Source: a virus
Direction: 5' to 3' (one strand)
Virus record (IMG/VR): IMGVR_UViG_3300027985_000412
Location: 3,310 to 67,309 of that record
DNA: 64,000 nucleotides
Part shown: one piece after another, positions 48,291 to 64,000 of the stretch
Numbering within the stretch: position 1 is the stretch's first letter
Layout: each line of letters begins with the position of its first letter
The notes under the pieces: generated by a model
The model's database searches: none
What the model saw: the letters and a program-made list of their open reading frames with translations, nothing else
What the model was told of the DNA's origin: nothing
Program-made: the position numbers and the translations under genes

Positions 48291-49598
48291 TTAATTCTCC
48301 TTTAATTTTTTACTTTGTCTTTCCGCTTTATCACACTTCTTACAACGATTTGAGTACCCATCAGAAGCGCGGGCCTTACGAACGAAATTATGGGTGTCGC
48401 GCAGTAGAAGTACCCCACATGTGTTGCAATTCTTGAAGTTTTCGGGAAAGGCTAGATTTTCAATTAGGAGAGCGTGATATTGAGCTGCTTCCGCAACCCT
48501 CATACAAATCTTTTGACGGAAGATTGTGGAGATATAGTTTGAGGTATATGTTTTGTTGAACTGTTTGTTGATGGAGTCTGCTATGTCTTGGTTTTTGACT
48601 CTCCTTTTCTTTAAGTTGAGGATTTGGATTTGAACTTCGTCGAGTTCGGCCATTTCCACATAAAAGTTTAGGGTTTTTAGAACGAAAGGGGTAGTGGTCT
48701 CAGGATCATCAAGAGAATCTTCTTCAAGTTCAAAGCAGTAAAGGAATAGATTGTAGATATGCTCTAAGTTGGTGAAGTCGAGAAGAGTCGCTGCGCCCGT
48801 GTGAGATTTTTGCTCATAATAAAACGAAGATATCTGTTTGACGGAATCTTCGTTGAAAGAGTCGTTTGTGACTTTCGAGAAGATACGCTGCGCCATCGGT
48901 GTATCATTAAAGAGACCGAGAGGTAGAACTGGAACTGTATCTTCGAAAGGTATGTGGTCGTTAAGAAAAACCGGAGCACGATACGGTGTTTTTGGTGTGA
49001 TCTCGGTTACGTAGGAGTCACGGATTGTATATTGTTCACGACGCAATTCAACTAGAAGGTGGCGCATTTTATAGTAGGAATAGAGTTTTAGAGAGGCTGC
49101 TTTTTGTTTTGCGTTCTCGATTTGCTCGGGAGTAAAACGGTCAAGTAGGTCTTTTCTTGGGTCTTTCTTACGTTTATTGTGCGCGAGGTCATAGAAATTT
49201 AGGACGAGTTCTAGTGCGTCAATCTGCTTCCATAAGTCGTGAAGTTCCGTAATATGTGAATTTTCTTCGCGAGAAAAAACCACTTTAGGAGTCCGGTAAT
49301 GGGGTTGATTAGGGCCTTGGATTTGATTTTCCGAGAAAGTAGGGGACTCTAAGAGACCGTCAAGAGATTCAACAGGTTTCTTAGACCAAGTAGAGTAGCG
49401 AGTTTCGATTTCGATTTCTCCTCTGTCTACTACGTTTTCTCCGTCTATGTCTTTGCCGTAAAGCATATAGTTTGCGATTGTTTCGAGTTCCTTTTCGGTT
49501 AATTTACCTTCGGGAAAGTTTTCTTCCAGATAGTCTTCTACGAAGCGTTTGCGCCCATAGATATCTGGTATTGTAAAATCTAATTTAAGTCTATTCAT
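48291..49598 (-). CDS. putative DNA-binding protein (C-terminal HTH-like plus Zn finger)
   Basis: LDEVQIQILNL...NQDIADSIN...YISTIF resembles a sigma region 4-type HTH; CNTC...CKKC; first gene of the - strand block. Confidence 0.55.
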   Translation of the reverse strand: MNRLKLDFTIPDIYGRKRFVEDYLEENFPEGKLTEKELETIANYMLYGKDIDGENVVDRGEIEIETRYSTWSKKPVESLDGLLESPTFSENQIQGPNQPHYRTPKVVFSREENSHITELHDLWKQIDALELVLNFYDLAHNKRKKDPRKDLLDRFTPEQIENAKQKAASLKLYSYYKMRHLLVELRREQYTIRDSYVTEITPKTPYRAPVFLNDHIPFEDTVPVLPLGLFNDTPMAQRIFSKVTNDSFNEDSVKQISSFYYEQKSHTGAATLLDFTNLEHIYNLFLYCFELEEDSLDDPETTTPFVLKTLNFYVEMAELDEVQIQILNLKKRRVKNQDIADSINKQFNKTYTSNYISTIFRQKICMRVAEAAQYHALLIENLAFPENFKNCNTCGVLLLRDTHNFVRKARASDGYSNRCKKCDKAERQSKKLKEN

Positions 49599-49927: not shown

Positions 49928-49956
49928 TTGCAATTCTTAGACGTATCTGTTATACT
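49928..49956 (+). promoter_or_regulatory. SigA-type promoter containing a TTAGACGT half-site in its spacer
   Basis: TTGCAA (49928) - 17 bp - TATACT (49951); TTAGACGT at 49937-49944. Confidence 0.75.
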
Positions 49957-50000
49957 TTATATAAGGTCAGAAATGACCAAAATACAGGAGGTAGAAAAAA

Positions 50001-50555
50001 ATGGCAAGAAAACTTCTCAAAGACACTTTGGCGGATTATATGGAATATGCAAAATCTGTCAACGTGCATGTAAAGCCCGTCAAAGGTGTTCACAGTGGCG
50101 CAAAGGGCAGACCGTATGAAATGGCGGTCAAAGTGGCAATTACTCCCAATTCTAAAGCTGCTGGCGTTGCCAAAGCTGGAAGAATTGACCATCGTGCGGG
50201 CGGTATCCGCTACGAAATCAAAACAGGATGCGGTGAAATCTGCCGTATCAATCCTGAGACAGGCGAAATGTCAAAGCCTTTTGGCGGTGCGGATTATGTC
50301 ATATACTGCCCATTCTTCAACCTGAATGAAGCTGTAGAGACTCAATCCTACGTAGTACCAACAGCCGAAATGGTGGCTCTACTGGAAGAACTTGGATTGG
50401 TTAGAACAAAAGCCTCAACGAGTAGCTACAGAAATGGCGTGGCGGTCATCGACAGAATAACAATTCAGAGCTTCAGCAACAGCAGGAAAAAAGAGGAAGC
50501 CCTGTATGCGGCACTTGACCAATATCCGAAGCTCGGTGAGTGGTTGGAACAATAA
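50001..50555 (+). CDS. PD-(D/E)XK restriction-endonuclease-fold protein (putative)
   Basis: GRPYE...GRID...YEIKTG...DYVIY pattern; AGGAGG RBS. Confidence 0.6.
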   Translation: MARKLLKDTLADYMEYAKSVNVHVKPVKGVHSGAKGRPYEMAVKVAITPNSKAAGVAKAGRIDHRAGGIRYEIKTGCGEICRINPETGEMSKPFGGADYVIYCPFFNLNEAVETQSYVVPTAEMVALLEELGLVRTKASTSSYRNGVAVIDRITIQSFSNSRKKEEALYAALDQYPKLGEWLEQ

Positions 50556-50610
50556 GGAAGGAAGGGCAGGGGAGAAATCCCCTGCCACCTACAAAATAGG
50601 AGGAAGAAAA

Positions 50611-50766
50611 ATGGAAACTAAAAAATGGAATGTAACCTACATGAGCACATATGGATTCCACGTTACAATAACAGGAGTTGAAGCGCTGAACAGTACGAGC
50701 GCAGGAGAGAAAGTCCAAAGAACAGCTAAGGACTGGAAGCGTAGAATTAAAGTGGAACAGGCGTAA
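50611..50766 (+). CDS. small hypothetical protein
   Basis: AGGAGG RBS before ATG 50611; stop codon lies in a hairpin loop. Confidence 0.6.
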   Translation: METKKWNVTYMSTYGFHVTITGVEALNSTSAGEKVQRTAKDWKRRIKVEQA

Positions 50767-50790
50767 GCCTGTTCCAAGAAAGGATTTACC

Positions 50791-51090
50791 ATGTTAAACT
50801 ATTCATCAAAAGAAAACGAGCAGCTACTATTTGAGGGATTGAAAATTTATTTCCAATTCCAGACAGCAATGGCATCCTGTCGTGAGCGTATATTTAACGA
50901 CGAATGGCCGCATGAGTTAGGCGTTACACCAAACGAGTTAAATATTCAAATGGCGCGTTTACTAGGTAATGAGGACGAAGTCCGCGATTTCTATTTCTAC
51001 TGTGACAATACACTTCTAAAGGGAATGTATTATCCATCACAAACGAAGATACGCGAGAAGTTGAAGGAAATTCGTTCCATGGAAATATAA
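50791..51090 (+). CDS. hypothetical protein
   Basis: 99 aa, AAGGA RBS, followed by a hairpin. Confidence 0.6.
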   Translation: MLNYSSKENEQLLFEGLKIYFQFQTAMASCRERIFNDEWPHELGVTPNELNIQMARLLGNEDEVRDFYFYCDNTLLKGMYYPSQTKIREKLKEIRSMEI

Positions 51091-51201
51091 GGGAATTTAT
51101 TCCCTTATTAATCTTAGACGTGGCACGTCTAAGGTTTTCCCCTTGACTATCTTATCACTATGTGATAAGATAGTACTATCAAGAGAGGGAGGAATACCAA
51201 A

Positions 51202-51375
51202 ATGGCAACAGTCAAAACTTCGAACCTTAAGGATTACACGCGTGAGGAAGCGTACGCGATGAGTCAGACCGTCGGCAAGGCGTGGGATGAGTTCATGGCT
51301 CGCGAAGCTGAGAAGGCTGAGGAAGCCTCAGCTGAGCCGGAACCCGACGCCGAAGAGGTGGAAGGGGACGAGTAG
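51202..51375 (+). CDS. 57-aa acidic protein (absent from ORF track)
   Basis: GGAGG RBS; MATVKTSNLKDY...EPEPDAEEVEGDE. Confidence 0.7.
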   Translation: MATVKTSNLKDYTREEAYAMSQTVGKAWDEFMAREAEKAEEASAEPEPDAEEVEGDE

Positions 51376-51377
51376 GA

Positions 51378-51461
51378 ATGAAAGAGAAGCTGAAAGCTAT
51401 AGTGCTGTTAGAGCTTGCTATACTTCTGCCACTCGCCTTCGTGATACACTTCTTCTTTTAG
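51378..51461 (+). CDS. 27-aa hydrophobic peptide (absent from ORF track)
   Basis: MKEKLKAIVLLELAILLPLAFVIHFFF; starts 2 bp after the previous stop and ends at a hairpin. Confidence 0.5.
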   Translation: MKEKLKAIVLLELAILLPLAFVIHFFF

Positions 51462-51571
51462 GGGATTTTCCCCTAAAAGAAGTCTTAGACGTAATACGTC
51501 TAAGATAATCACTTGTATTTTCTTATCGTTTGGGTTATAATAATAATACAGTAAGGAAAGGAGTTGCACAA

Positions 51572-51730
51572 ATGAGAAGTTTAGTTCGTTGCTTGCGCGC
51601 TAAATCAGAGGATGAATTTTCAGAAGGTTTCAAAGTCATAGACAAATTTTTGTCGATAATTGGTTATGGAGCTATCACAGTATTTGTTCTCTATCTCGGC
51701 GTCCACGGTGTTTTTTACCTCCTTAAGTAA
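51572..51730 (+). CDS. small membrane protein
   Basis: AAGGAG RBS; C-terminal hydrophobic segment. Confidence 0.6.
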   Translation: MRSLVRCLRAKSEDEFSEGFKVIDKFLSIIGYGAITVFVLYLGVHGVFYLLK

Positions 51731-52170
51731 AAACCAAACCTTTCTATCTGTTACGGACGGACTTGCCACCGTCCGTATTTTTATTTTATTCTTAGACGTA
51801 CAACGTCTAGGAAAAAAGGTTGTTTTTTTTTGTCGAATCGCATATAATACATATATAAGGTAACAAACATACATAAATAATATCCAATACAGTAGACAAA
51901 AACCAAAAGTAACGAATGTAACCAATGTAACAAGAATGTAAAAATGGAAAAGTATTCTGTCACATTATTTCCCATATTCTGACATCAGTGAAAGAGGGAG
52001 ATTTGTCAGTGCAATAGAGAAAGGATACTTTGATTCTACCGATAGAAGTCAAAATGAGCTACGTTTTAAGAAATGAGCTACGATTAGACGTGTAACGTCT
52101 AAAAAAATTTCTTGACTTTTATTAATGTCAATGATATAATTATAACATCAAAAGGAAGGGGAATAAAACA

Positions 52171-52413
52171 ATGGCAAGAAGAGGATTAAAAATTGATTTT
52201 ATGCATAAAAGTATCGAAGTATCTCATGCATACTCATTGAGGGCATCCAAATTTAATAGTTTAGAATATATTGAATTAGGATGTATAAAATTAGACTTTC
52301 CAGATTTTGAAGTTTATGTTCTTCCTAAACAAAAAAAGAAAAAGAAAAAGAAGAAACCTTCTGTAGATGAGGTTATCGCAAAGATTTTGGCAGAAAAGGA
52401 GAATACAATATAA
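52171..52413 (+). CDS. hypothetical protein with poly-Lys tract
   Basis: Cassette promoter and RBS; KQKKKKKKKK. Confidence 0.65.
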   Translation: MARRGLKIDFMHKSIEVSHAYSLRASKFNSLEYIELGCIKLDFPDFEVYVLPKQKKKKKKKKPSVDEVIAKILAEKENTI

Positions 52414-52616
52414 TGAAAGAATGGCAAGTTGTACTTTTGGGATCTTTAATTGCTTTAGGAACAGTTGCAGGATTATTCGGTCTTTGCTTCTTAATTCCCG
52501 AAGGAGTTGGGCGCGACTCAATGATGCGTTTAGTCTCTGGATTTAGTTTCCCAATCGGTCTTGGCGCATATGCATTGACAAAATGGATACAGTATAGAAA
52601 ATCTTGTGACGATTAG
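52413..52616 (+). CDS. small membrane protein
   Basis: AAGGAG RBS; two hydrophobic segments. Confidence 0.6.
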   Translation: MKEWQVVLLGSLIALGTVAGLFGLCFLIPEGVGRDSMMRLVSGFSFPIGLGAYALTKWIQYRKSCDD

Positions 52617-52717
52617 TCACAAGAATAGTGTTAGACGTATCACGTCTAAGAAAACTTCTTGACTTTTTTGTATTATATGGTATAATAGTATTATCAAGTG
52701 AAAGGAAATAAAAAGAA

Positions 52718-53263
52718 ATGAAAGCAACAGGAATAGTAAGAAGAATTGATGAACTCGGGCGCGTGGTCATTCCGAAGGAGATTCGCAGAACACTTCGGAT
52801 AAGAGAAGGAGATCCTTTGGAAATCTATACCGACAGAGAAGGAGGAGTCATCTTCCGGAAGTATTCTCCAGTCGGTGAGTTGAACAATCTTGCTAAAGAC
52901 ATGGCAAGCACTCTTGCGTCAACCACAGATTTGATGATACTCGTCACCGATATGGATTCGATTCTCGCAACGTCAGGACGTGCGCGGCGTCTTGATGGGA
53001 TGCCCCTCTCGCCCATCATGATCGAGATGATTCAAAAGAGATATCCGACATGTGCGGGCCGCGAAGGTTTTGAACAGATATTTAACGTTGATACGTTAAG
53101 TGGTTTCCTCTCTCAATTCTACGTTCAACCCATCTTGGTTGATGGTCAGCCGGTTGGTGGATTATGGTTTCTCTCCACCAAAGAAGAAGGAGTGATTCCG
53201 GCAGAGGTCAAAGAAATTGCAAAATTCGCCGTTGCGTTTCTTGAGAAACAGTTGAACAATTAA
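52718..53263 (+). CDS. spoVT: SpoVT (AbrB-type DNA-binding domain plus GAF-like domain)
   Basis: MKATGIVRRIDELGRVVIPKEIRRTLRIREGDPLEIYTDREGGVIFRKYSP; 181 aa ending AVAFLEKQL. Confidence 0.9.
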   Translation: MKATGIVRRIDELGRVVIPKEIRRTLRIREGDPLEIYTDREGGVIFRKYSPVGELNNLAKDMASTLASTTDLMILVTDMDSILATSGRARRLDGMPLSPIMIEMIQKRYPTCAGREGFEQIFNVDTLSGFLSQFYVQPILVDGQPVGGLWFLSTKEEGVIPAEVKEIAKFAVAFLEKQLNN

Positions 53264-53374
53264 GGGGATTAATTCCCCTTAGTAAGTTAGACGTGTTACG
53301 TCTAATATTTTCTCTTGATATTTTTCTCGCAATCGGTTATAATAATACTATCAAGTAGAAAAGGAGTTAAAACA

Positions 53375-53869
53375 ATGTCAGTCATGCACTCGATTAGCAA
53401 TTGCAAGAAGATGTTAAATCATGGAATTGACCGCGCGGTGTATTACTCTCCAAAGTATGATATGATTATCAAGAAGGAAAAGCCCGGCGGTGGAGAAAGT
53501 GGAAAAGGTTGTGAAGCTCAATTCATGTATGAAAAGTCTTTTTATGAACAGCTTAGACCTGCGGAACGTATTTTCTTTCCAGTTATTGACTTTTGCGCCT
53601 ACAAAGGGAGAACCGTTTGTCTTATGCATCGTTGCACCTGCTTAACTGACTTACCACAATATCAAGAGCTTAACAGCGCATTATCATTCGGCGGTTGGCG
53701 TTATTGGACAGTATCAGAATTAAGACTTATCTTTCTTACTTTGGGATTGAATACTCGTTTTGTTAAATACTTCCATAATGTCATCACTCGCTTTGGACTT
53801 CATGACTTACATCTTGGAAATCTTGGAGTTTATAATAACCATTTGGTAATTCTTGACGCGGGATTTTAA
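53375..53869 (+). CDS. minimal protein-kinase-like protein (paralogue 1)
   Basis: HGIDRAVY, IIKK, catalytic loop HDLHLGNLG, ILDAG. Confidence 0.7.
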   Translation: MSVMHSISNCKKMLNHGIDRAVYYSPKYDMIIKKEKPGGGESGKGCEAQFMYEKSFYEQLRPAERIFFPVIDFCAYKGRTVCLMHRCTCLTDLPQYQELNSALSFGGWRYWTVSELRLIFLTLGLNTRFVKYFHNVITRFGLHDLHLGNLGVYNNHLVILDAGF

Positions 53870-53970
53870 TCCCGCAGTCATAGAGTTAGACGTATAACGT
53901 CTAAAAAAAAATATTGACTTTTACCAATTAATTGGATATAATAATACTATCAAGTGAAAGGGGAGAGATA

Positions 53971-54453
53971 ATGTCATTAATCCAATCAATTCCAAAGTTT
54001 AGAAAGAAACTTGGATACGGAATCTCAAGAGAAGCGTTTTACTCTAGAAAATATCAATGTGTAATTAAACGCTCTAGGCCGGATGGTTGTGGACATCGTC
54101 CAATTCGTTCCCAGATGTTAGCAGAGATTAACCTCTTTGAACGTATGGAAGAATCTGAAAGAGAATTCTTTCCAGTTATTGAAGTTCTTGAATACAAAGA
54201 GGAAAAATTGATTGCTATGCATCTAATTAAACCAATCTCTTCTAATAAAGATTGGGAACAACTTTTCAATTCTTTGTGGAGATTGCAAACAGAAGAAAAG
54301 TATAACACTTTGTGCGCTCAAATTGGTCTTGACTGTTCATATAATAAGGCTTTTTGGACATTTGTTCGTAAATATCATATTGATGATTTACACACTGCAA
54401 ATGTTGGCGTTTATAATAATCATCTTGCGATTATCGATGCCGGATTAAATTAA
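53971..54453 (+). CDS. minimal protein-kinase-like protein (paralogue 2)
   Basis: LGYGISREAF, VIKR, DDLHTANVG, IIDAG. Confidence 0.7.
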   Translation: MSLIQSIPKFRKKLGYGISREAFYSRKYQCVIKRSRPDGCGHRPIRSQMLAEINLFERMEESEREFFPVIEVLEYKEEKLIAMHLIKPISSNKDWEQLFNSLWRLQTEEKYNTLCAQIGLDCSYNKAFWTFVRKYHIDDLHTANVGVYNNHLAIIDAGLN

Positions 54454-54551
54454 TCCGGTCTTTTTTAATTAGACGTTGAACGTCTAAGATTGTCTATTGC
54501 ATTTTCTATTCTCATATAGTATAATAAGAGTATCAAAAGGAGGGTAAAAAG

Positions 54552-54839
54552 ATGATTTGGTTTAATGGAGAAATTACACCATTGGCACCGACGTTAGTTA
54601 TTGGAAAGATTCATTCTGTATCTGGTCAAAAAGAAGTTGTCTGTCGTTGGAATGGCTCAGATTTTGTGCGCGCTGGTCAAGAACTATTTGTGATTGAATG
54701 GCGTCCGTTCTCAATGGACAATGATAGTCTGTTTGCCTTCTGCTTACAGCTCATAGCAGAAAAGCACTCGCCCAATCTTTCAACAGAAAAAAGAATGGAC
54801 GCGGCGTATAAATTAATGGAGGACTTGGTAATCGAATGA
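54552..54839 (+). CDS. hypothetical protein
   Basis: Cassette promoter and AGGAGG RBS. Confidence 0.65.
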   Translation: MIWFNGEITPLAPTLVIGKIHSVSGQKEVVCRWNGSDFVRAGQELFVIEWRPFSMDNDSLFAFCLQLIAEKHSPNLSTEKRMDAAYKLMEDLVIE

Positions 54840-54937
54840 TTACCAAACCATATTAGACGTTATACGTCTAATTATAACTATTGACTTTCATTATAGATGT
54901 GTTATAATAAGAATATCAAATGAAGGGAGTACAGAAA

Positions 54938-55210
54938 ATGTACGTTAAAGTTGAAACAGATTGTGCCTTTGCAGGATGCAATGAAAAACATTTGGTCGAA
55001 GTACCGGATGACATGAGCGAAGAGGAACTCAATGCAATGGTGAATGAGTATGTGCAAGCTGACATTACTCCGGAAGGTAGCTATGAGATTCTTACCGAAG
55101 AAGAAGCAGAAGAGCTTGCAGAAGATGGTTATGAATGTGAATCTTATGGTTTCGAAGTCGAACCGGATTCTGACCCGAATGAAGTTCCAGGCACAGGGGA
55201 TGAGGATTAA
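54938..55210 (+). CDS. highly acidic small protein
   Basis: 90 aa with about 30 Asp/Glu, 2 Lys and 0 Arg. Confidence 0.7.
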   Translation: MYVKVETDCAFAGCNEKHLVEVPDDMSEEELNAMVNEYVQADITPEGSYEILTEEEAEELAEDGYECESYGFEVEPDSDPNEVPGTGDED

Positions 55211-55310
55211 TCATCCCCTTTCCTAATTAGACGTAATACGTCTAAGATATTCACTTGCATTTTATATCTATCTATAGTATAATACTATTATCAAGGAAGG
55301 GAGAAAAACA

Positions 55311-55709
55311 ATGAAAAAGATTTGTGATACTTATATTGACTTGGAGGCAGGAGTCTTTAACAAGAATGGTAGATTACTCTATGTTATTAAAGCGCATGTG
55401 AGTGAGAAGCTAAAGTATTGTGACGAAAGAGATGTTGACCTGATGAATGACTTCAAAGCACTTGACAAAGCTATCCAAAAATGTTACAATGGTTTCTCTG
55501 TATTCTCTGATAGCGTCTTTTCGGCGGATGGATGTGGATTCAGCTCTTATTCTGGAGTAAGTAAACGTCATTCAGTTAAGATTATTGGTTTGCGCTCTAT
55601 TGCAAAACAAAACACAACTTTCTCAATGCAAGATATAATGCAAAGAATGTGTTATCTTGATATAACAGAATACGCCAAAGATAATGCGATAGCATTATTT
55701 AACAAATAG
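55311..55709 (+). CDS. hypothetical protein
   Basis: Cassette promoter and RBS. Confidence 0.65.
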   Translation: MKKICDTYIDLEAGVFNKNGRLLYVIKAHVSEKLKYCDERDVDLMNDFKALDKAIQKCYNGFSVFSDSVFSADGCGFSSYSGVSKRHSVKIIGLRSIAKQNTTFSMQDIMQRMCYLDITEYAKDNAIALFNK

Positions 55710-55717
55710 GAGGGAAT

Positions 55718-55954
55718 ATGAAACTCTATATTGTTTGGGAAGATAATCATGGTGACGTTTCGTGGTGGACAGAAAAACATCTTGCTATCCGAGAAATGAG
55801 ACGCATTATAAAATATGGATGGTGCAAGAGAGAACGCGCGCAGATTATCAAAGAGTATCGCGAAGAAAATCCAAAAAAGAGATTCCGTTGGTGGGAAGCG
55901 TTTAGCGATTGCGTTGGTTATCGCGAAGTGGAACTAAATAAAAGTTGGAATTAA
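55718..55954 (+). CDS. hypothetical Trp-rich protein
   Basis: AGGAGG RBS; second gene of its cassette. Confidence 0.6.
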   Translation: MKLYIVWEDNHGDVSWWTEKHLAIREMRRIIKYGWCKRERAQIIKEYREENPKKRFRWWEAFSDCVGYREVELNKSWN

Positions 55955-56053
55955 TCCAACTTTCATACTTAGACGTTTGACGTCTAACAATCAAAATTGA
56001 CTTTTTAATTAATTTGTGTTATAGTAATAATAGAAAATGAAAGGGGAAAGAAA

Positions 56054-56233
56054 ATGGTTAATTTAACAAAGAGAAAGAAAACTCCGGTTGAGCAGATTAG
56101 AAATGAGGTTGCCAAACTGGGCGGTTCAAGCGTCCTTTCGGACACTTCCTTGCTAACAATAGTTGGGGGACTTGAGAAAACTTATCCTGTGGTGATTGAG
56201 TTTGGCTCGAAATATGCCCTCGAAGAGGTGTGA
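56054..56233 (+). CDS. 59-aa hypothetical protein (absent from ORF track)
   Basis: Cassette promoter and AAGGGG RBS; MVNLTKRKKTPVEQ...ALEEV. Confidence 0.65.
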   Translation: MVNLTKRKKTPVEQIRNEVAKLGGSSVLSDTSLLTIVGGLEKTYPVVIEFGSKYALEEV

Positions 56234-56333
56234 GCCACCTCTTCCCTAGTTAGACGTTCAACGTCTAAGTTTTCTCCTTGACTTTTATTATTAATTATAG
56301 TATACTAATAATAATGAAAGGGAGGGTTATAAA

Positions 56334-56540
56334 ATGAAAAAGTTTATTGCAAGAAATTTTCCCTGTGTGATTGCAGGACTTCTCACCTTAGTTCTAACTG
56401 CCGCATTTATGGCGATAGCATCCTTAATCACAGCCTGCTCTGATGGAGCTATTGGTATCATCTGCTTTAGTGCTGCGTTCGCTTGTACAATTCCCGCGTA
56501 TACATGGATGGAAAGAATCTCCAAGAAATATTACTCTTAA
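56334..56540 (+). CDS. small membrane protein
   Basis: Two hydrophobic segments; cassette promoter. Confidence 0.65.
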   Translation: MKKFIARNFPCVIAGLLTLVLTAAFMAIASLITACSDGAIGIICFSAAFACTIPAYTWMERISKKYYS

Positions 56541-56647
56541 CGTACCATAGGTACGTTATAGTTAGACGTATTACGTCTAAGAAAATCTCTTGACGTTCTT
56601 TTTCTTGTATGATATACTAAGTACATAAAGTGAAGGGAGTACAAAAC

Positions 56648-57112
56648 ATGAACACAAAAACAATCTACTTTGATATGGACGGAACAATCGCAAATTTGTA
56701 TGGTGTAAGAAATTGGTTGCCGCGTTTGCGGTCAGAGGATGCTACACCATATCTGGAAGCTGAACCCATGTGCGATATGGTAAGAGTTATTGAATTGCTT
56801 GAAGCTCTCTGCGCTCAAGGGTATCGAATCGGGATTATAAGCTGGCTATCTATGGGAGCTTCAAAAGCCTATAAGAAAGAAGTCACGCGCAACAAAAAGC
56901 GATGGCTCAACCAAGAAATGCCAATCGAATTTGACGAGATGCATTTCATACAATATGGTACACCCAAACACCGCGTTGCGCGGGATAAATTCGGAATCAT
57001 CATTGATGACAGCTCCGAAGTGAGGGCTGGATGGGAAAAGCGTAATAACCGCATAGCGGTTGACCCGGCAGAAATGCCAATAGAAAATTTCCTCCTTTCC
57101 CTTCTATCTTGA
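56648..57112 (+). CDS. HAD-superfamily 5'(3')-deoxyribonucleotidase-like protein
   Basis: IYFDMDGTIAN (motif I), K-W-L and IIIDD (motif IV). Confidence 0.8.
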   Translation: MNTKTIYFDMDGTIANLYGVRNWLPRLRSEDATPYLEAEPMCDMVRVIELLEALCAQGYRIGIISWLSMGASKAYKKEVTRNKKRWLNQEMPIEFDEMHFIQYGTPKHRVARDKFGIIIDDSSEVRAGWEKRNNRIAVDPAEMPIENFLLSLLS

Positions 57113-57237
57113 TAGAGGTCGAGTGGCAATAATTGTCACTCGGCTTCTAGGATTAGACGTCATACGTCTAACTATTTCTGTTGACACTATTAATAGGGTA
57201 TGATATAATAAAGACAATAAAAGAAAGGAAAACTAAA

Positions 57238-57510
57238 ATGAAAGCGAGGAATATTATGGGTAGTTATCGAGTAAAGAGAGGATACAGTAACGCGGCAGTT
57301 GGTCTTGGATGTTTGGGAATCATTATGTTGGTTCTTCTGATGTGCGCTGTATCTGCTTTCTTGGGCGGACTGATCGTCTATCTTCTGTGGAACGCACTTG
57401 TTCCGGTTCTGTTTGGCGGTGTCGTCATAACATACTGGACTGCGGTTCTTATCGGTCTTGCTCTTGGATTCATCGGCAGTATTTTCACGGTTCGAGTAAA
57501 GGGGAGTTGA
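57238..57510 (+). CDS. membrane protein
   Basis: Long hydrophobic segments; LWNALVPVLFG...ITYW. Confidence 0.65.
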   Translation: MKARNIMGSYRVKRGYSNAAVGLGCLGIIMLVLLMCAVSAFLGGLIVYLLWNALVPVLFGGVVITYWTAVLIGLALGFIGSIFTVRVKGS

Positions 57511-57609
57511 TTCCCCTTTCTTAGTTAGACGTAGCACGTCTAATCTTTCTTCTTGACTTTTATTATTATTGTGATATAATAAAGATAATAAAAGAAAGGG
57601 GAAAACAAA

Positions 57610-58020
57610 ATGTTCACAGGTATTTTAGTAGGTATCGGTATCTCTCAGTTAATCTGTTTCTTGGTTTTCGTGCTTACTCATGAGGATGAGATGAAGGCAA
57701 TGCTTGCAGGCGGAGGAATCTTTCTGTTGCCTGTTAAATGGCTCTTTATGCTAATGAGAGCTATTTGGAAAGCATATGTTAATCACACATATACTGTCTA
57801 TAAGGTCTGCGGCGTCAACGAAAACTTTTGGAATCAGTATGTCAGATTGAAAAAGAAATGGTTTGACAATTACTACCACGAAGGAGAAAATGATTACTAT
57901 ATCGAGGAGTATTTGGAACCGAAAAACAAACCACATAATTATGACCCTTTACGGAAACTTCCCGGCAATGGATGGTGGAATCAGGAATGGGTTAATAAGA
58001 ATCTATTAAAAGAGTCGTGA
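57610..58020 (+). CDS. membrane-anchored hypothetical protein
   Basis: Two N-terminal hydrophobic segments; cassette promoter. Confidence 0.65.
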   Translation: MFTGILVGIGISQLICFLVFVLTHEDEMKAMLAGGGIFLLPVKWLFMLMRAIWKAYVNHTYTVYKVCGVNENFWNQYVRLKKKWFDNYYHEGENDYYIEEYLEPKNKPHNYDPLRKLPGNGWWNQEWVNKNLLKES

Positions 58021-58142
58021 GACTCTTTTTTAGTTAGACGTAATACGTCTAAGAAAAAGTCTTGACTTCTATGCTCAATATGTTATAATGATATTGTGGT
58101 TGAGGGAAATCAACCAACAAAAAAAAATTAGGAGGCCTTACG

Positions 58143-58511
58143 ATGGCAGACAAGAAAATGACACAGAGGGAATTTTTTACAGCGGTGAAGGAAGCAAATC
58201 TTTCCAAGGAAATGACAGATTTTGCCGAAGCGGCAATTGCGGCTCTCGATAAGAGGAACGCGGCAAGACAGGCACAGCCGAGCAAAAAGGAAGTCGAGAA
58301 CGAACCGATCAAAGCGGCTCTCGCGGCAATCGTCACGGGCGCAGGAAAAGCCATGATTGCAAAGGATATCACAGCGGCATACAACGCGGCGAACGCGGAT
58401 GCCCAGATTACCACGCAGAAAGTTTCTGCTCTCCTGCATCAGCTTGTGGACGCTGGCACGCTCAAGAAGGGCGAACCTGTCAAAAAGACGCTGACCTATA
58501 TCGGCGCATAG
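58143..58511 (+). CDS. winged-helix DNA-binding protein (paralogue 1)
   Basis: C-terminal AKDI...ITTQKVSALLHQLVDAGTLKK...TY; similar to 62830-63198. Confidence 0.65.
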   Translation: MADKKMTQREFFTAVKEANLSKEMTDFAEAAIAALDKRNAARQAQPSKKEVENEPIKAALAAIVTGAGKAMIAKDITAAYNAANADAQITTQKVSALLHQLVDAGTLKKGEPVKKTLTYIGA

Positions 58512-58602
58512 TGAAAGGGGATTTATCCCCTTTTTTTAGTTAGACGTTATACGTCTAATAATTAGTATTGACTTCTCTTATCTAATATGTTATAGTTATA
58601 TT

Positions 58603-58900
58603 GTCGAGAGGGAAAAGAGTACGGTGCGCAACGTATCCACATTGGCCGTGTGGCCTTCCGAATAGGTTATCCCCATGTGCCGAATAAGACTGAGGGCGGT
58701 TCGATACCGTTACTGGCTAACGGATGGTGAGTTCAACCGATGAAACCTATGGGCCGAAGAGTTATGCGCCCCGCAGAATGCAAGGCTCCGCGTTAGACGC
58801 TAAGTGACTTAGCCTTGGAATACGAAAAGGCAACCTCCGAGAGGGAGCCAGGAGGAATAGGCTCCAGCTATATAAGGTATCTCCATTTGAGATACCTTAT
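58603..58900 (+). ncRNA. candidate structured non-coding RNA cassette
   Basis: Lies between a promoter (58568-58596) and a terminator hairpin (58872-58900); GC-rich, several hairpins, no credible ORF. Confidence 0.55.
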
Positions 58901-58990
58901 TTACTTAGACGTGATACGTCTAAGATTCTCTCTTTACAATCTCTTAACATTATGTTATACTATCTATAATGAAAGAAGGAGGAAAAGGGA

Positions 58991-59464
58991 ATGGAAAATA
59001 TTTGGATTTTTATAGTCGCTCAATTAATCAATGTTGTGTTAGGAACAATGCGATCGGTACTGACAATTCGTTCCAGTCAAAATGTGGCAGCTATCATTAA
59101 TGCTGTGAGCTTCACCTTTTATGCAGGTGTTGTTAAGATGATAACTGGTCAAGAAATGTGGCTCGTTTTAGTAGTAACATTTATTACCAATATCATCGGC
59201 GTTTATGTTGCTATGTGGATTGTGAAGAAATTTAGTAAAGACAAGATATGGAAAATCACAATTACGACAGAGTTTGAAGATGTTAAAGATTGGATTTGTG
59301 AAGGATTGGAAAAATATAATCTTGGTTATTCTTCAATCGAAATTGAATCGGGTTATGTGATTGATGCATATTCATACACGCAAAACGAAAGTTTATTGAT
59401 TAAGGAAGTAATTTCCAAACATAAAGTAAAATACTTCGTTACTGAAATGAATAAGACTTTATAA
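58991..59464 (+). CDS. UPF0316/DUF5698-like membrane protein
   Basis: IFIVAQLINVVLGTMRSVLTIR, three TM segments and a soluble C-terminal domain. Confidence 0.65.
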   Translation: MENIWIFIVAQLINVVLGTMRSVLTIRSSQNVAAIINAVSFTFYAGVVKMITGQEMWLVLVVTFITNIIGVYVAMWIVKKFSKDKIWKITITTEFEDVKDWICEGLEKYNLGYSSIEIESGYVIDAYSYTQNESLLIKEVISKHKVKYFVTEMNKTL

Positions 59465-59571
59465 GTCTTATTCAATTTCAATTATTAGACGTAGTACGTC
59501 TAAGAAAATAATTTGACTTTTTAAAATTTTTCTGATATAATAAATTTAGAAAGTGAAGAAAGGAGAAAAAA

Positions 59572-59940
59572 ATGGCAGTTTCCAAAAAGTCCCTCAACGA
59601 AAAATTCAAAATGAAGGTGTTGGAAATGGTTTCCAATTTCCTCAAGGATGAAGGTGAGGATATTGTCCGCACAAAAAGCGGTGAAATTGCTTTTCCTTTT
59701 GTGAATGAAGCAGGGGATGATGAATGGATGAAAATTACATTTAGTGTACCTGCTGGCTCGCGTGATGGTGAACCGTTCGACGGTTACGGCGAAGCTGAAA
59801 GCTATGCAATGAGTATAGCAAGCAAAAAGGAAAAAGCGGCCACAGCGGCGGCGGCTAAGGAAAAGAAAATCCTTAAAGACACACAACAAAGAGCCAAGAA
59901 AGCGGAGAATCTGCGGAAGGCTCAAGAGGGTGGGGAGTAA
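59572..59940 (+). CDS. hypothetical protein with basic coiled-coil tail
   Basis: Cassette promoter and AAGGAG RBS. Confidence 0.7.
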   Translation: MAVSKKSLNEKFKMKVLEMVSNFLKDEGEDIVRTKSGEIAFPFVNEAGDDEWMKITFSVPAGSRDGEPFDGYGEAESYAMSIASKKEKAATAAAAKEKKILKDTQQRAKKAENLRKAQEGGE

Positions 59941-60044
59941 TCCCCATCCTTTTTTTTATTAGACGTGATACGTCTAAGAAAAAGCGTTGACTTCCTTTAT
60001 ATTGTATGTTATACTTAGTCTATCAAATGAAGGGAACATGAAAA

Positions 60045-60833
60045 ATGGATAAACGAAAAAACTATTATTTGGTACTTGATACCGAAACGGCGAACGGTCT
60101 GGATGACCCATTGGTTTATGATTGCGGTTTTGCAGTCGTGGATAAAAAAGGCAATGTGTATGAGACACATAGCTATATTATCTATGAGATTTACCGCGGA
60201 GAGCGTGAGCTGATGCAATCGGCGTACTATGCGGCAAAAATTCCCATGTATGAGGAACAAATCGCGGCAGGGCTGAGAAAAATTGTCAAATATATTACGC
60301 TTCGTAAAATCATTCGTGAAGTATGCGAACGCTGGAATATTAAGGCAATCATCGCCCACAATATGAGCTTTGACTATCGAGCTACCAGTAAAACCCAGCG
60401 ATTTCTCACGAGTTCAAAGTACAGGTATTTCTTTCCATATGGTATTCCTGTGTGGTGTACTAAGTGTATGGCACAAGATACCATAGCTAAGCAAAAGTCA
60501 TATATTGCCTATTGCGAAGAAAGAGGATATATGTATAATGGACGCCCGCGAGTGACAGCAGAAATCCTCTTCCGATATTTGTCAGGACAGCATGATTTTG
60601 AGGAAGAGCATACAGGGCTTGCCGATGTGCTGATTGAAAAGGTAATTTTTACCCAGTGTATGAGACAGCACAAACCTATGAGGAAATCTCCTTATAAAGA
60701 AAAAACTTATCCTTATGCTCAATATGAGGCTGATGGTTGGGAAATGACAGAAGAATTGTTAAGAAAAGGAAAGGGAACTTCTTTACTGGATGAACTTGTC
60801 AGACAAAGATGTTTAAAGGAAGTGTGCGTATAA
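60045..60833 (+). CDS. DEDDh 3'-5' exonuclease
   Basis: LVLDTET (ExoI), AHNMSFD (ExoII), EEHTGLADV (ExoIII). Confidence 0.85.
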   Translation: MDKRKNYYLVLDTETANGLDDPLVYDCGFAVVDKKGNVYETHSYIIYEIYRGERELMQSAYYAAKIPMYEEQIAAGLRKIVKYITLRKIIREVCERWNIKAIIAHNMSFDYRATSKTQRFLTSSKYRYFFPYGIPVWCTKCMAQDTIAKQKSYIAYCEERGYMYNGRPRVTAEILFRYLSGQHDFEEEHTGLADVLIEKVIFTQCMRQHKPMRKSPYKEKTYPYAQYEADGWEMTEELLRKGKGTSLLDELVRQRCLKEVCV

Positions 60834-60942
60834 CGCACATTTTCTTTTTATTTTAAATTAGACGTGTTACGTCTAAGAATAATTGTTGACTTATTATTAT
60901 TATTATGTTACAATGATTATAGTAAAAGAAAGGAGTAAAACA

Positions 60943-61206
60943 ATGGCAGTCCACAAAGACTTTAACAAATTACTTCAAGAAAGAATAGCATATCAAGATA
61001 ATGAGAAGAAAGTTAATTCTTTATATAAAGAATTGGCTGGATACGCTGATAGGATTGAAGATATTCGTGTTGAACTATTCAATAATCCTATTATCAATGG
61101 AGAAGAAGATAGAGATGCCTTGAGCGACCTTCTATTTAAACTCCAATCTCAATTGAGATATGATACGAAAGAGTTTCTTGAATGCATGGTCATTCTCGAT
61201 GACTAA
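60943..61206 (+). CDS. hypothetical coiled-coil protein
   Basis: AAGGAG RBS before ATG 60943. Confidence 0.65.
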   Translation: MAVHKDFNKLLQERIAYQDNEKKVNSLYKELAGYADRIEDIRVELFNNPIINGEEDRDALSDLLFKLQSQLRYDTKEFLECMVILDD

Positions 61207-61305
61207 GCGGTCTCCGCTTAGGGGATTAGACGTAATACGTCTAATCTTTCGACTTGACTTATCCATTTATTATGATATAATAGAATTAAAGAAAGGGGAA
61301 TTAAA

Positions 61306-61575
61306 ATGAATACAAATTGCGTTCATTGTACTATTCAAAATTGTTCTCAACATGGAGGAGATTTTGAAACTAGAGTTTGTAAAGTAACAGGAAAATTTTG
61401 TTACTACGATAGTGTATGGCAAACTCATGAAGAGAAATGTGAAACCTACAAACCTATTAATGATCCAATTATATATCGAGAAAATGAGATTAATAGACGT
61501 ATTGCAAACATGCAAAGGATTATTAGAGATTTTGAAGAAGAAAAATTGGCATTAAGAGACCCTAACTTTATATAA
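61306..61575 (+). CDS. Cys-rich hypothetical protein
   Basis: CVHC...C...C...C...C pattern; cassette promoter. Confidence 0.65.
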   Translation: MNTNCVHCTIQNCSQHGGDFETRVCKVTGKFCYYDSVWQTHEEKCETYKPINDPIIYRENEINRRIANMQRIIRDFEEEKLALRDPNFI

Positions 61576-61686
61576 CACGTATTTATACGTGTTATATCCT
61601 TAGACGTAATACGTCTAAAAATATTGATTGACTTTCTATCTAGTATGCGATATAATAAGACTATCGAAAGGAGAATAGAATATTTG

Positions 61687-62073
61687 ATGGAATGTATTTA
61701 CAATGGACGGAAGCACAAAATTTTTTCAAGGGTAAAGATACCCAAAGGTACTGGAAAAAGAAGCCAAAAAGGATTCCTGTATTTTATCCGAATTGGCGAA
61801 GCGACAAACCGCAAATTTAAAATCGGCACAGCTAACGATATTTTGCGGAGAATGACAGAACACGCTGGATATTACAAAGAGCCTATTTACATTTTATGGG
61901 TGTCACCTGTATACTCAAAGTACACCACCTTGAGAATTGAAGATAGGCAAAAAGAGGAATGGATAGCGGCTGAGCCTTGGGAATATCTGGAGAATGACCG
62001 CTTCATAATTCCTCTAGGAGTGGAAGAAATAACCATTCGAGTGCGGCGTGAATATGCGATACTTCTGGAGTAA
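61687..62073 (+). CDS. GIY-YIG superfamily (T5orf172-like) protein
   Basis: GFLYFI...FKIGTANDILRRMTEH...IE. Confidence 0.65.
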   Translation: MECIYNGRKHKIFSRVKIPKGTGKRSQKGFLYFIRIGEATNRKFKIGTANDILRRMTEHAGYYKEPIYILWVSPVYSKYTTLRIEDRQKEEWIAAEPWEYLENDRFIIPLGVEEITIRVRREYAILLE

Positions 62074-62123
62074 TCCAGAAGTTTCCTTATTAGACGTAGT
62101 ACGTCTAAGTCTTAAAGAGAGAA

Positions 62124-62267
62124 TTAATCTCCCTTTTTTCTTTCCTTGACTACATCGGTAATTGCCTTTATAAATGTACCAATGACGCCAATCCATGCAA
62201 GAACAACCACTGCACTTGGAAAAGAATACTGTGCTGCCAGAATTAGGATAATGATATAGAGTAACAT
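62124..62267 (-). CDS. small membrane protein (inverted cassette)
   Basis: MLLYIIILILAAQ...; AAGGA RBS; stop codon in a hairpin loop. Confidence 0.55.
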   Translation of the reverse strand: MLLYIIILILAAQYSFPSAVVVLAWIGVIGTFIKAITDVVKERKKGD

Positions 62268-62268
62268 T

Positions 62269-62502
62269 TTACTTTCCTTCCCGTGGGAGTTTATCATCCC
62301 ACATATAGAGTTTAATACGAACCACTTCTTCATTCCCATCTTGTACAAAATCTACTCCGCCGAAATTGTAAAGATTTCCTTCACAGTCCATATCTTCAAA
62401 CTTAATCGGCGCGAGTTCGTCTAATTGCATTAAGACGTGAACCAATTCTTGTTCTAAATACTTAAGTATTTTTTGTCTGTCTGCTTTCGGTTTAAGTGGC
62501 AT
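62269..62502 (-). CDS. hypothetical protein (inverted cassette)
   Basis: AAGGAG RBS; - strand promoter at 62556-62528. Confidence 0.65.
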   Translation of the reverse strand: MPLKPKADRQKILKYLEQELVHVLMQLDELAPIKFEDMDCEGNLYNFGGVDFVQDGNEEVVRIKLYMWDDKLPREGK

Positions 62503-62780
62503 CTTTGTTCTCCTTTCATTTGTCTATATTATATCAATAGTTAAAAGAAAAGTCAAGTCTAAATGTTAGACGTACAACGTCTAAGATTTCCAAATTTGTC
62601 AAATTTCTTCTCCCCACAGAATTTATTCCCCGTGTCAAATTTTCATCAAACCGAAAAAGAGCTACGATTGTCAAATTTTAATAGAGCTGGAAATGAGCTG
62701 CGTTTTTTTAATTTTATTGGTAAGACCTGCGACCTGGCAAATTTTGCTGTCACAGAAATTTCTGGAAGTGCGCAGACAAC

Positions 62781-62829: not shown

Positions 62830-63198
62830 TTACTCTGCTACGGGGAGAGTATAACCCTTCTGAGCACCCTTGCCCTTAATCTTGACTTCGACCTGCACAG
62901 CCTTACCTTCGTCGACCAGCTTGCGAAGCAGCGCAGAAGCCTTCTGTACCGAAATCTCAGCCGCCGGAGCCACATCAGAAGCCGTCACCGGTTCAGTCGT
63001 CAGCATACCAGCCAGCGTCTCCATAATCGGCGCATTCTCCACATCTTTCTTGGACGGAGTATTGCGTCTCTTCTCATTTACCGCATCAAGCTTTGCAACT
63101 TCTGCCTGAGCGAATTCAGCCACATCTGCGGTCACACCTTCCATCGCCAGCACTGCCGTGAGGAACTCTCTCTTTGTCATCTTTTCTTTGTTAGCCAT
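62830..63198 (-). CDS. winged-helix DNA-binding protein (paralogue 2)
   Basis: VTASDVAPAAEISVQKASALLRKLVDEGKAVQVEV...KGYTL is a typical wHTH pattern. Confidence 0.7.
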   Translation of the reverse strand: MANKEKMTKREFLTAVLAMEGVTADVAEFAQAEVAKLDAVNEKRRNTPSKKDVENAPIMETLAGMLTTEPVTASDVAPAAEISVQKASALLRKLVDEGKAVQVEVKIKGKGAQKGYTLPVAE

Positions 63199-63719
63199 TT
63201 GTTTGTACTTCCTTTCAAAATAAGTTTTTTATATCGAGCGAGAGTTACTTCCTCTCTCACTTTCTATCTTTATTATATCAGAGTTTCTGAAACTTTTCAA
63301 ATTTTCAGCTCCTCGATTTTTCTTCGGGCGGCATCTAACGGTAAACGTGTGCCGCCCTATACATACAGGAGGTAAATCCTTGTAGAAATAGAGATTGGTA
63401 GAGTCAATGCTTGCGACTCCCAGCCCTTCAACCATCTTAACGCGGGAACGAAAATGGCAGTTTTCGTAGCCTAACCTCTCTCTCACTTTCTATATATAGT
63501 ATATCATGATTTTAAGAAAATTGCAAATTTTTATTAGCCTTATTCATCACAAATGTGATGGCGCGCTAGTGGTTCGGCAATTTAATTTTGACTCGTTGAT
63601 TTCTGTGGGATGACTGTTTTATAATTTGATTTTGTGTGAAAGTTTGGCGCAGACACATTCTACCTGAGTCCACGATTTTTACCGTAACTATCTGAGCTGG
63701 GAGAGTAAGACTCTCGCCA

Positions 63720-64000
63720 TGTCTACGTAGTTAGTATACGTAATTAGTCTACGTAGAATTATACGTATTATTATACTCCCTATCCGTATACGTTTTACCT
63801 ATACGTTTTACTTATACATTTATCTACACTTATATCTATACGTACTACGTATACTATTTATATACTCCCTGTACGTTTAATTATTCGTATACATAGATAT
63901 ATACATATACTTATACGTAGAACTTATAAGTATATTTTTTAAAGTAAAATAATAAGTAATACGTATACGTATTACTTAGAAGTATATTTATAAGATTTAT
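63720..64000. repeat. AT-rich low-complexity tract with about a dozen TACGT motifs
   Basis: Repeated (TA)TACGT(A/T) and TATAC units; no ORF. Confidence 0.7.

Follow-up and report, generated by a model that had tools for sequence, protein, structure and literature searches.

The stretch of viral DNA analysed here (the window) comprises 64,000 nucleotides, bases 3310–67309 of the 67,309-nt virus contig IMGVR_UViG_3300027985_000412, which CheckV rates as 57% complete. Its early region is divided into small units by 25 copies of a 19-bp palindrome, TTAGACGT-N3-ACGTCTAA, and these palindromes are probably the operators of one dimeric, most likely phage-encoded regulator that acts on RNA polymerase. 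The most satisfactory interpretation of the palindrome is as an operator of a regulon, set within intergenic modules like the promoter/stem-loop elements (PeSLs) of T4-type phages. We infer binding of a protein to the palindrome, and its contact with the polymerase, from features of the sequence: invariant arms around a free centre, a fixed and phased position, concerted switches of the motif between lineages and matching half-sites. The initial annotation had proposed a single-factor regulon over the accessory region, an integron-like cassette-shuffling platform, or both. The regulon is the best-supported of these and the PeSL precedent also holds, but the integron-like site-specific platform does not.

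A motif scan with TTAGACGTNNNACGTCTAA, allowing up to two mismatches, located 25 sites in the window, all within 51114–62584. Of these, 24 are perfect palindromes and the single mismatch is in the copy at 51792, which ends ...CTAG. In 100 dinucleotide-preserving shuffles the motif occurred 0.03 times on average and at most once, and the array is real and far above chance. The complete contig contained the same 25 palindromes and zero others, in agreement with the earlier observation that no full copy lies elsewhere. Over the 25 copies the arm positions are identical at 399 of 400 places and the central triplet has 16 different values; the flanks, unlike the arms, are variable on reading. The spacing runs from 281 nt (55969 to 56250) to 899 nt (59959 to 60858) and gives 24 units. 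The copy number, the near-invariant arms with one mismatch, the free central triplet and the unit lengths in the initial annotation were all reproduced by the scan. Its range, which started at 49928, was real from 51114 to 62584, position 49928 being a promoter that carries a half-site only. The centres of the two half-sites are 11 bp apart in the sequence, one helical turn, and such a spacing is typical for dimeric helix-turn-helix (HTH) proteins. The palindrome is not known to match a regulator consensus, those of LexA, CIRCE, cre, parS and dif included. Among the matches listed in a literature search for the two 8-mers of the arms there were only primers or unrelated sequences, the search being limited so that the motif may be in print, and in a similarly limited test the AAT/ATT form of the palindrome was absent from GenBank phages. 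The array and its copies are as follows, ‘both scans’ denoting location by the motif and promoter scans.

51114–62584 (+), array of 25 palindromes bounding 24 expression units; units 1–23 rightward, unit 24 with convergent leftward genes
51114–51132, copy 1; gap to the -35 of 10 nt; both scans and flank reading
51485–51503, copy 2; gap of 9 nt, -35 TTGTAT; motif scan and flank reading
51792–51810, copy 3; sole mismatch (...CTAG), -35 TTGTTT; unit without an open reading frame (ORF)
52084–52102, copy 4; both scans
52631–52649, copy 5; 5' of the SpoVT-like gene; both scans
53287–53305, copy 6; both scans
53886–53904, copy 7; both scans
54469–54487, copy 8; -35 TTGCAT; motif scan and flank reading
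54853–54871, copy 9; both scans
55227–55245, copy 10; -35 TTGCAT; motif scan and flank reading
55969–55987, copy 11; both scans
56250–56268, copy 12; both scans
56562–56580, copy 13; 5' of the HAD-like gene; both scans
57153–57171, copy 14; both scans
57525–57543, copy 15; both scans
58034–58052, copy 16; 5' of an internal winged-helix paralog, long leader; both scans
58540–58558, copy 17; GC-rich unit without an ORF
58905–58923, copy 18; both scans
59485–59503, copy 19; both scans
59959–59977, copy 20; 5' of the exonuclease-like gene; both scans
60858–60876, copy 21; both scans
61226–61244, copy 22; both scans
61600–61618, copy 23; both scans
62090–62108, copy 24; no adjacent promoter, followed by the hairpin common to the convergent units
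62566–62584, copy 25; minus-strand layout, 9 nt and then TTGACT-17-TATAAT at 62556–62528, with a TTTGTCAAATTTC box on the other side

A near-consensus sigma-A promoter lies 3' of 24 of the 25 palindromes, with a gap to the -35 of 9 nt at 23 copies and of 10 nt at copy 1. An independent consensus scan placed a sigma-70-type promoter starting 10–11 nt past the end of the palindrome at 20 of the 25 copies (19 on the plus strand and copy 25 on the minus strand), and flank reading found weaker -35 hexamers at the same place in four more, those at 51485, 51792, 54469 and 55227. Copy 24 has no adjoining promoter and is followed by a hairpin where two transcription directions meet, and copy 25 has the mirror-image layout, with a promoter for the minus-strand gene 62269–62502. 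The typical module consists of the terminator hairpin of the preceding cassette, a few bases, the palindrome, 9 nt, a -35 that is mostly TTGACT and a 16–17 nt spacer, and then, from flank reading, an extended -10 (TG-n-TATAAT), a short leader, a Shine-Dalgarno sequence and the ATG. In the usual numbering the palindrome extends from about -63 to -45 with its centre near -54, so that it is upstream of the core promoter and does not cover it. In the window the consensus scan counted 71 promoter-like and 31 terminator-like sites, compared with 38 and 9, respectively, in shuffled sequence. An ORF preceded by a Shine-Dalgarno sequence is present in 21 of the 24 units, its ATG lying 80–88 nt after the start of the palindrome in 20 and at 109 nt in the other; the units at 51792 and 58540 have none and unit 24 consists of the convergent minus-strand genes from copy 25. 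The module layout recurs at nearly every copy. Nine of the 25 palindromes were scored as terminator-like in a simple scan by virtue of T-rich promoter flanks. The true terminators are separate and upstream, and the palindrome is not the G+C-rich hairpin with a U-run of an intrinsic terminator.

The position of the palindrome relative to the promoter was analysed clade-wide using 849 unique TTAGACG-N5-CGTCTAA sites, 696 of which have a strong promoter within 70 nt. The gaps to the -35 are grouped as follows.

7–10 nt, 392 sites
17–20 nt, 138 sites
27–30 nt, 48 sites
39–42 nt, 25 sites
50–52 nt, 19 sites

The peaks at 9, 18, 29, 40 and 51 nt give a period of ~10.4 bp, so that the sites occupy one helix face at the whole-turn spacing of upstream (class-I-like) regulator sites. 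For gaps greater than 12 nt the Rayleigh p was ~1e-54, random positions being flat, although this p is too small as sites in related contigs are not phylogenetically independent, and to that extent the phasing carries less weight in favour of an operator. Phasing is also visible inside single loci, with gaps of 9/19/28–29/38–40 nt in locus L054 and 8–9/18–19 nt in L058, and the longer gaps are filled by A/T tracts. Spacing by whole helical turns is as expected for a protein that must face RNA polymerase and is meaningless for an RNA hairpin or a recombination site. In L256 an extra half-site, ACACATCTAA, was noticed at the promoter-proximal position where gaps to the -35 are long (reverse-complement coordinates 12780, 15318 and 15748).

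Genes for RecJ-like, PolIII-alpha, anaerobic NrdD and activase, dUTPase and RuvC-like proteins occupy the left part of the window. They are followed by long minus-strand structural genes ending with the terminase, and this gene order is that of SPbeta. Between this terminase and its counterparts in Geobacillus virus E3, Alicyclobacillus phage KKP_3916, Enterococcus phages and Brevibacillus phage Sundance (‘YonF’) the identity is 35–46%; GenBank contains no phage closely related in DNA sequence. The exact 19-mer pattern was found in IMG/VR in 79 stretches with 452 sites, always as arrays in the order terminator, palindrome, promoter. Five long relatives, four of them rated 100% complete and three with terminal repeats, have one array per genome with 10–20 sites each, every listed site falling in one stretch of 5–13 kb (four further sites, which may belong to any of the five records and by count are those of relative G004, are outside those listed). 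The element is present in a large clade of uncultivated 110–140 kb SPbeta-like phages. Among the matches listed, arrays of the motif are also on short contigs binned with Clostridia, Eubacteriales, Acutalibacteraceae and a few other metagenome-assembled genomes (MAGs), some from ruminant gut. A different habitat label is attached to the sequencing runs that contain the contig of the window.

Sister lineages were fetched with a conserved neighbour of the early region as anchor, and the 80 further loci obtained were then classed by their repeated palindrome.

48291–49598 (−), sigma-factor-like protein of 435 aa, matching the PHROG ‘sigma factor’ family; divergent from the early region and used as the anchor
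TTAGACG-type array, 19 loci
TTAGATGT-N3-ACATCTAA, 5 loci
TTAGACTT-N3-AAGTCTAA, 2 loci
TTAGACGT-AATT-ACGTCTAA, with a 4-nt centre, 1 locus
TCGTACGT-N3-ACGTACGA, 1 locus

The palindromes of the sister lineages thus include variants with GATGT, GACTT and an N4 spacer, and the layout is kept. The promoter is 7–10 nt away or whole turns farther in the TTAGACG, TTAGATGT and TTAGACTT kinds and at three of the four TCGTACGT sites; at the AATT locus the promoters are farther away at distances that appear less regular. Within one genome both arms switch jointly, as would be expected if operator and cognate protein co-evolve, and less so for one conserved host factor. Two other loci contain repeats of TTGTTAA-N4-TTAACAA that are not beside sigma-A-type promoters. 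A CCCGGGCG box with varied palindromes was also observed 5' of early promoters in L235, L246, L248, L266, L271 and others; the palindromes include GGTTAGT-N4-ACTAACC, CACTTTA-N6-TAAAGTG and AATATAT-n-ATATATT, and one genome can have several kinds. In 24 of the 80 relatives (L213–L284) the sigma-like gene contains in-frame stops, often where others have Gln, 21 having TAG only (1–13 per gene) and three TGA only. These stops suggest that some members of the clade have a recoded stop codon; the genes of the window itself read through under table 11.

The first early promoter, divergent from the sigma-like gene, differs from those of the array in having no palindrome upstream. It carries a half-site of the same kind inside the promoter.

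49928–49956 (+), first early promoter, TTGCAA-17-TATACT; no upstream palindrome; drives 50001–51090
49937–49944 (+), lone half-site TTAGACGT in the spacer of this promoter
50001–50555 (+), first early gene, under the half-site promoter; 184-aa protein with invariant D63...E72-x-K74 (PD-(D/E)xK nuclease-like)

In the window alone there are six lone 7-mers against 7.8 expected, so this single half-site is unremarkable by itself. However, 12 of 23 distinct relatives have a lone half-site within the 760 nt next to the sigma-like gene and in nine of the 23 it is in the spacer of the first divergent promoter or overlaps its -35, where the chance expectation is ~0.0013 per spacer. The half-sites match the phage's own operator type, being GACG in L214, L219, L220, L241, L270 and L279 and GATG in L212, L229 and L256. 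As a half-site in a core promoter would block the polymerase, the predicted factor very likely represses the first early promoter. A half-site inside a promoter also indicates that the element is read as DNA. Whatever the operator type of the phage, the nuclease-like gene adjoins the sigma-like one. Its Atlas neighbours are labelled ‘restriction endonuclease family’ with a TM score of 0.68, which can be taken as a lead only, and a Foldseek search of the PDB yielded no match (best E 0.2).

The operator model can be stated more fully. Each operator sits between the terminator of one cassette and the next sigma-A promoter with its centre near -54, and a bound dimer would act on RNA polymerase from this position or from 10, 20, 30 or 40 bp farther upstream on the same helix face. 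The whole accessory early region of ~24 mostly monocistronic units would then be under one switch. The same protein on the single half-site in the core of the first early promoter would block initiation there. The modules of terminator, operator, promoter and leader would also offer shared sequence for gain, loss and replacement of cassettes by ordinary recombination. For the sign of the control exerted from -54 we favour repression or early shut-off, at roughly even chances, the leaning towards repression coming from the promoters, which are already near consensus; activation would be a less probable outcome though one to be taken seriously. More tentatively, and with doubt, the parts could be joined as a novel master-regulator system in which one phage protein would act on 13–25 identical upstream operators on one helix face and on the half-site of the first promoter, repress the immediate-early operon and switch the array, with at least 4–5 co-diversified specificities and with the operator doubling as the preferred crossover point for cassettes. 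In a bolder sub-case the PD-(D/E)xK nuclease-like product of the first gene would be the site-specific binder or cutter.

Several results weigh against the operator model, one being that no binder was identified among the phage proteins examined. The SpoVT-like gene was rejected as it is in only 6 of the 79 stretches, the sigma-like 435-aa protein as its HTH, NYISTIFRQK, is invariant over all the motif types. In the nuclease-like first gene no covariation with the motif was visible. With the contig at ~57% completeness, the regulator could be encoded in the missing 43%. The near-consensus promoters make an activator seem unneeded and a site at -54 leaves the promoter unoccluded. A 122-aa winged-helix family was a further candidate, with the following members in the window.

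58143–58511 (+), internal paralog of the 122-aa winged-helix family
62830–63198 (−), 122-aa winged-helix protein just outside the array; own promoter at 63300–63272, no palindrome, conserved leader

Two or three copies of this family are in or beside every array examined. The AlphaFold2 model (pLDDT 94) has N-terminal helices and a winged helix, and Foldseek gave a weak resemblance to MarR/PadR/ArsR-type regulators (best E 3.5e-3). The recognition helix of the ortholog outside the array, S-V-Q-K-A-S, is the same in GACG- and GATG-type phages, a further point against the model, and among the internal paralogs there is no consistent grouping by motif. As a candidate binder this family is unsupported rather than rejected. 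No homolog of YopR, AimR or other SPbeta regulators was present in the window or the related loci searched, PDB sequence searches were uninformative and searches assigned no function to the 59572 family. Two leaders were observed in connection with the winged-helix genes. The gene outside the array and its neighbour have a common leader, ATAGAAAGTGAGAGAG...GTAACTCTC, after their own promoters (63199–63300 and 63487–63527, minus strand), and it also precedes orthologs in L290, L291, L294 and L300, which are phages of other operator types. The second, GGGTGGCGACC-n-CGCC..., is absent from the window and precedes winged-helix paralogs and cassette ‘5’ in many relatives (seen in L026, L035, L038, L069, L079, L147, L289, L291, L295, L297 and L298); it may be a cis-regulatory RNA.

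The binder could also be a host protein, either a global regulator or a nucleoid protein, exploited to time or silence the early region. Phages with only 30–60% identity between their shared proteins have the same 16 bp in the arms, and no examined phage protein covaries with the motif, as would suit a host factor. However, closely syntenic sisters use different palindromes, one with a 4-nt centre, for which specificity borne by the phage is the easier explanation. Furthermore, among the matches listed in the genome scan the multi-copy ones are on short phage-like MAG-binned contigs and the rest are single, ~139 single matches being expected by chance in 596 Gb by our estimate, and no host regulon was seen. 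We consider a host binder unlikely. There might also be no factor at all, the palindrome being part of a repeated promoter module homogenised by recombination (concerted evolution of the PeSL type). The modules do recombine and the promoter and leader are likewise stereotyped, but homogenisation would not fix 16 arm positions yet leave free the three central bases and the adjoining 9-nt gap, would not yield gap steps of ~10 bp and would not put half-sites of the matching type in a different promoter. This explanation appears quite improbable.

The exchange of cassettes bears on whether the palindrome is a site-specific recombination site, as part of an integron-like or homing-type platform. 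Turnover of the cargo is very high, 417 of 604 inter-palindrome segments from 78 loci being singletons at 80% identity. Close relatives keep the backbone order and differ by insertion, loss or replacement of single cassettes, for example ‘3-24-5’, ‘3-33-5’, ‘3-24-51-5’ and ‘3-5’, or ‘4-9-3’ against ‘4-32-3’. Of 62 ends of high-identity alignments, 57 are no more than 100 nt from a palindrome, compared to 26 of 62 random points, the 62 ends not being independent events. When the ends were signed, 19 were at the palindrome or its upstream edge (-25 to +11 nt from the centre), 9 in the core promoter, 18 in the leader or at the ATG, 9 at the stop codon or terminator and 7 elsewhere. Reading of individual junctions showed that the 9/32 swap starts just past the ATG and ends at the stop codon, that the 24/33 swap starts at the transcription start and that cassettes upstream of ‘5’ switch exactly at the palindrome edge; the cargo ‘5’ occurs behind two different promoter modules. 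The pattern matches exchange through any short shared element of the module, as for PeSLs, rather than a recombinase cutting at one point.

The 19 breakpoints close to the centre, the high turnover and a PD-(D/E)xK nuclease-like gene opening the region could all be accommodated by a recombination site. However, neither tyrosine (PF00589) nor serine (PF00239) recombinases were found in the four complete relatives or in this contig when control genomes were positive, and an integron-like system is unsupported because the four complete relatives encode neither. In addition, 43 of the 62 breakpoints are elsewhere in the module (core promoter, leader/ATG, terminator), backbone order is kept among relatives and helical phasing with the -35 has no role at such a site. 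No cassette joints or variants were seen in contigs of three sequencing runs, though contigs drop rare forms. A recombination site is therefore given very little probability. That the palindrome acts as an RNA hairpin at read-through 3' ends (a second terminator, stabiliser or processing site) is prompted by its place directly after each cassette's terminator, by the 8-bp stem and 3-nt loop that would form and by the nine terminator-like copies, but is scarcely credible as a hairpin needs complementarity only and yet the 849 sites have the same arms, there is no consistent U-run, the position is tied to the downstream -35 with the ~10.4 bp period and not to the upstream stop codon or terminator, lone half-sites are found within promoters and at copy 25 the layout is mirrored for a promoter on the minus strand.

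The operator model may be compared with known systems, the nearest in a related genome type being that of SPbeta. There, according to PMC10516654, a repeated intergenic element (SPBRE) at early promoters is bound by the master regulator MrpR (YopR), with 10 peaks in chromatin affinity sequencing (ChAP-seq) at ten bound promoters. The likeness lies in the many intergenic copies at early promoters of an SPbeta-type genome and in the shared gene order of RecJ, PolIII-alpha, ribonucleotide reductase, dUTPase, RuvC-like protein and structural genes with a YonF-type terminase. The sequences, however, are unrelated (...ACAAATACAAAWAATATGTATATAAT in SPbeta), and the upstream regions of the 10 SPbeta genes named in that paper show ACAAATACAAAWAATATGTAT, which the palindrome does not match. 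The SPBRE is within the core promoter or overlaps it, whereas 24 of the 25 copies here are upstream of a -35 and only the half-site at 49937 is inside a core promoter; the copy numbers also differ, 25 palindromes against the 10 ChAP-seq peaks. The tyrosine-recombinase-fold repressor of SPbeta was not found here, tblastn giving no YopR homolog in the window and related loci searched and PF00589 being in none of five records, four of them complete. Since an integrase is missing from the complete relatives, a role as a lysogeny switch is improbable.

The T4-type PeSLs, as described in PMC2839356 and PMC4122927, combine a terminator with a strong sigma-70-type early promoter before ORFans in a hyperplastic region, and the ends of indels and replacements between relatives fall in these modules. 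The modules of the window likewise are intergenic, with the excess of sigma-70-type promoters and terminators over shuffles given above, precede ORFans in a hyperplastic region (tblastn at E<1e-4 found relatives in the other arrays for only 8 of the 26 array genes that are validly framed) and contain the ends of indels and replacements. Mini-circles between neighbouring modules also belong to the PeSL picture; the contigs of the three runs, in which rare forms drop out, showed no such joints. The differences are that the PeSL stem-loop is variable and has no invariant palindrome, whereas the window adds an exactly conserved, phased element between terminator and promoter, and that the phage lineage is another one. 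The cultured but distant Enterococcus phage H1 (L288, OP534061, 3265–14452) has the same synteny and, at the same genomic position, an array with a promoter per gene, with HAD and exonuclease genes among the cargo. This array lacks upstream palindromes and the -35, TTGACA, is often in the loop of the preceding terminator hairpin, which is PeSL-like.

An upstream-bound dimer on a defined helix face, such as phi29 p4, can activate a weak promoter or hold the polymerase at a strong one. This is a mechanistic analogy only, there being no sequence or protein relation to the system in the window. In the heteroimmunity of temperate phages, related phages share a regulatory layout and have different operator sequences. 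The sister lineages here also keep the layout and change the operator, but the complete relatives are without integrase, and the operators, 13–25 per genome, are placed upstream of promoters and not over them. Integron attC arrays are alike in that palindromic elements divide a row of small genes, most of them unrelated to each other. They differ in that no integrase is found here, each cassette has its own promoter and terminator (a promoter at 24 of the 25 palindromes), the element is conserved in sequence and not in structure alone and only 19 of the 62 ends are at the palindrome.

Most of the array genes have no Pfam match. The remaining cargo that could be described is as follows.

52718–53263 (+), SpoVT/AbrB-type regulator; PF15714/PF04014 above cut-off; in only 6 of 79 related stretches
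56648–57112 (+), HAD-like hydrolase; Pfam match below cut-off; in 36 related stretches
60045–60833 (+), exonuclease-like protein; 44% identical to an annotated exodeoxyribonuclease of Enterococcus phage H1; in 44 related stretches
62269–62502 (−), 77-aa gene, leftward from copy 25

The SpoVT label of the initial annotation is thus borne out, the HAD label agrees with a Pfam match that is sub-threshold and the exonuclease label depends on the identity to the phage H1 protein. A T5orf172 match in the cargo was also below the Pfam cut-off. The domain searches of the array proteins gave no support for kinases; this label may refer to two neighbouring cassettes, 53375–53869 and 53971–54453 (+), whose proteins have similar N-termini (MSVMHSIS... 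and MSLIQSIP...) and no Pfam match and which are apparently a tandem duplication. The candidate non-coding RNA has nothing in its favour beyond the missing ORF. The ORF-less unit 58603–58903 (+) has ~50% G+C in a region of 36–40% G+C and its own operator-type palindrome, promoter and terminator, but no Rfam family, a fold z-score of -1.1 and no match in five relatives. Rfam on the window gave only a sub-threshold SprD match.

Other features were observed at the end of the array. Directly after the last palindrome, at 62595–62679, are three boxes, TTTGTCAAATTTC, GTGTCAAATTTTC and TTGTCAAATTTT, which are not a sigma-A promoter, and a box of the TTTGTCAAATTTC type is also 7–10 nt from the terminal palindrome of the arrays in L014, L016, L034, L041 and L054. 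The word AATGAGCTACG (or GAGCTACG or GAGCTGCG) is repeated at 52053–52082, in the 3'-terminal part of unit 3, which has no ORF, and at 62659–62705 after the last palindrome. The stretch from 63700 to 64000 is A+T-rich with many TACGTA/ATACGT words, stretches of ~71% similarity follow the arrays in L069 and L083 and one public contig stops within it at 63823. This stretch could be an origin or the end of a genome.

Three findings go beyond what had been noticed on first reading, namely the phasing on the helix, the operator types specific to lineages and the half-site within a promoter. The element provides a handle on early gene control in a widespread group of large phages for which metagenomes are the only source. 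The exact 19-mer could serve as bait for the regulator, the natural series of gaps of 9/19/29/39 nt is a ready-made phasing experiment and the sister motifs allow specificity-swap tests. In contigs of this clade the motif is also a simple marker for locating the hypervariable early region. The concept behind PeSLs, in which gene shuffling is driven by regulatory modules, is extended to a second, unrelated phage lineage and acquires a sequence-specific component. If the joint master-regulator system outlined above were true, the operator specificities would insulate co-infecting relatives from one another, and regulation and gene flux would use one element.

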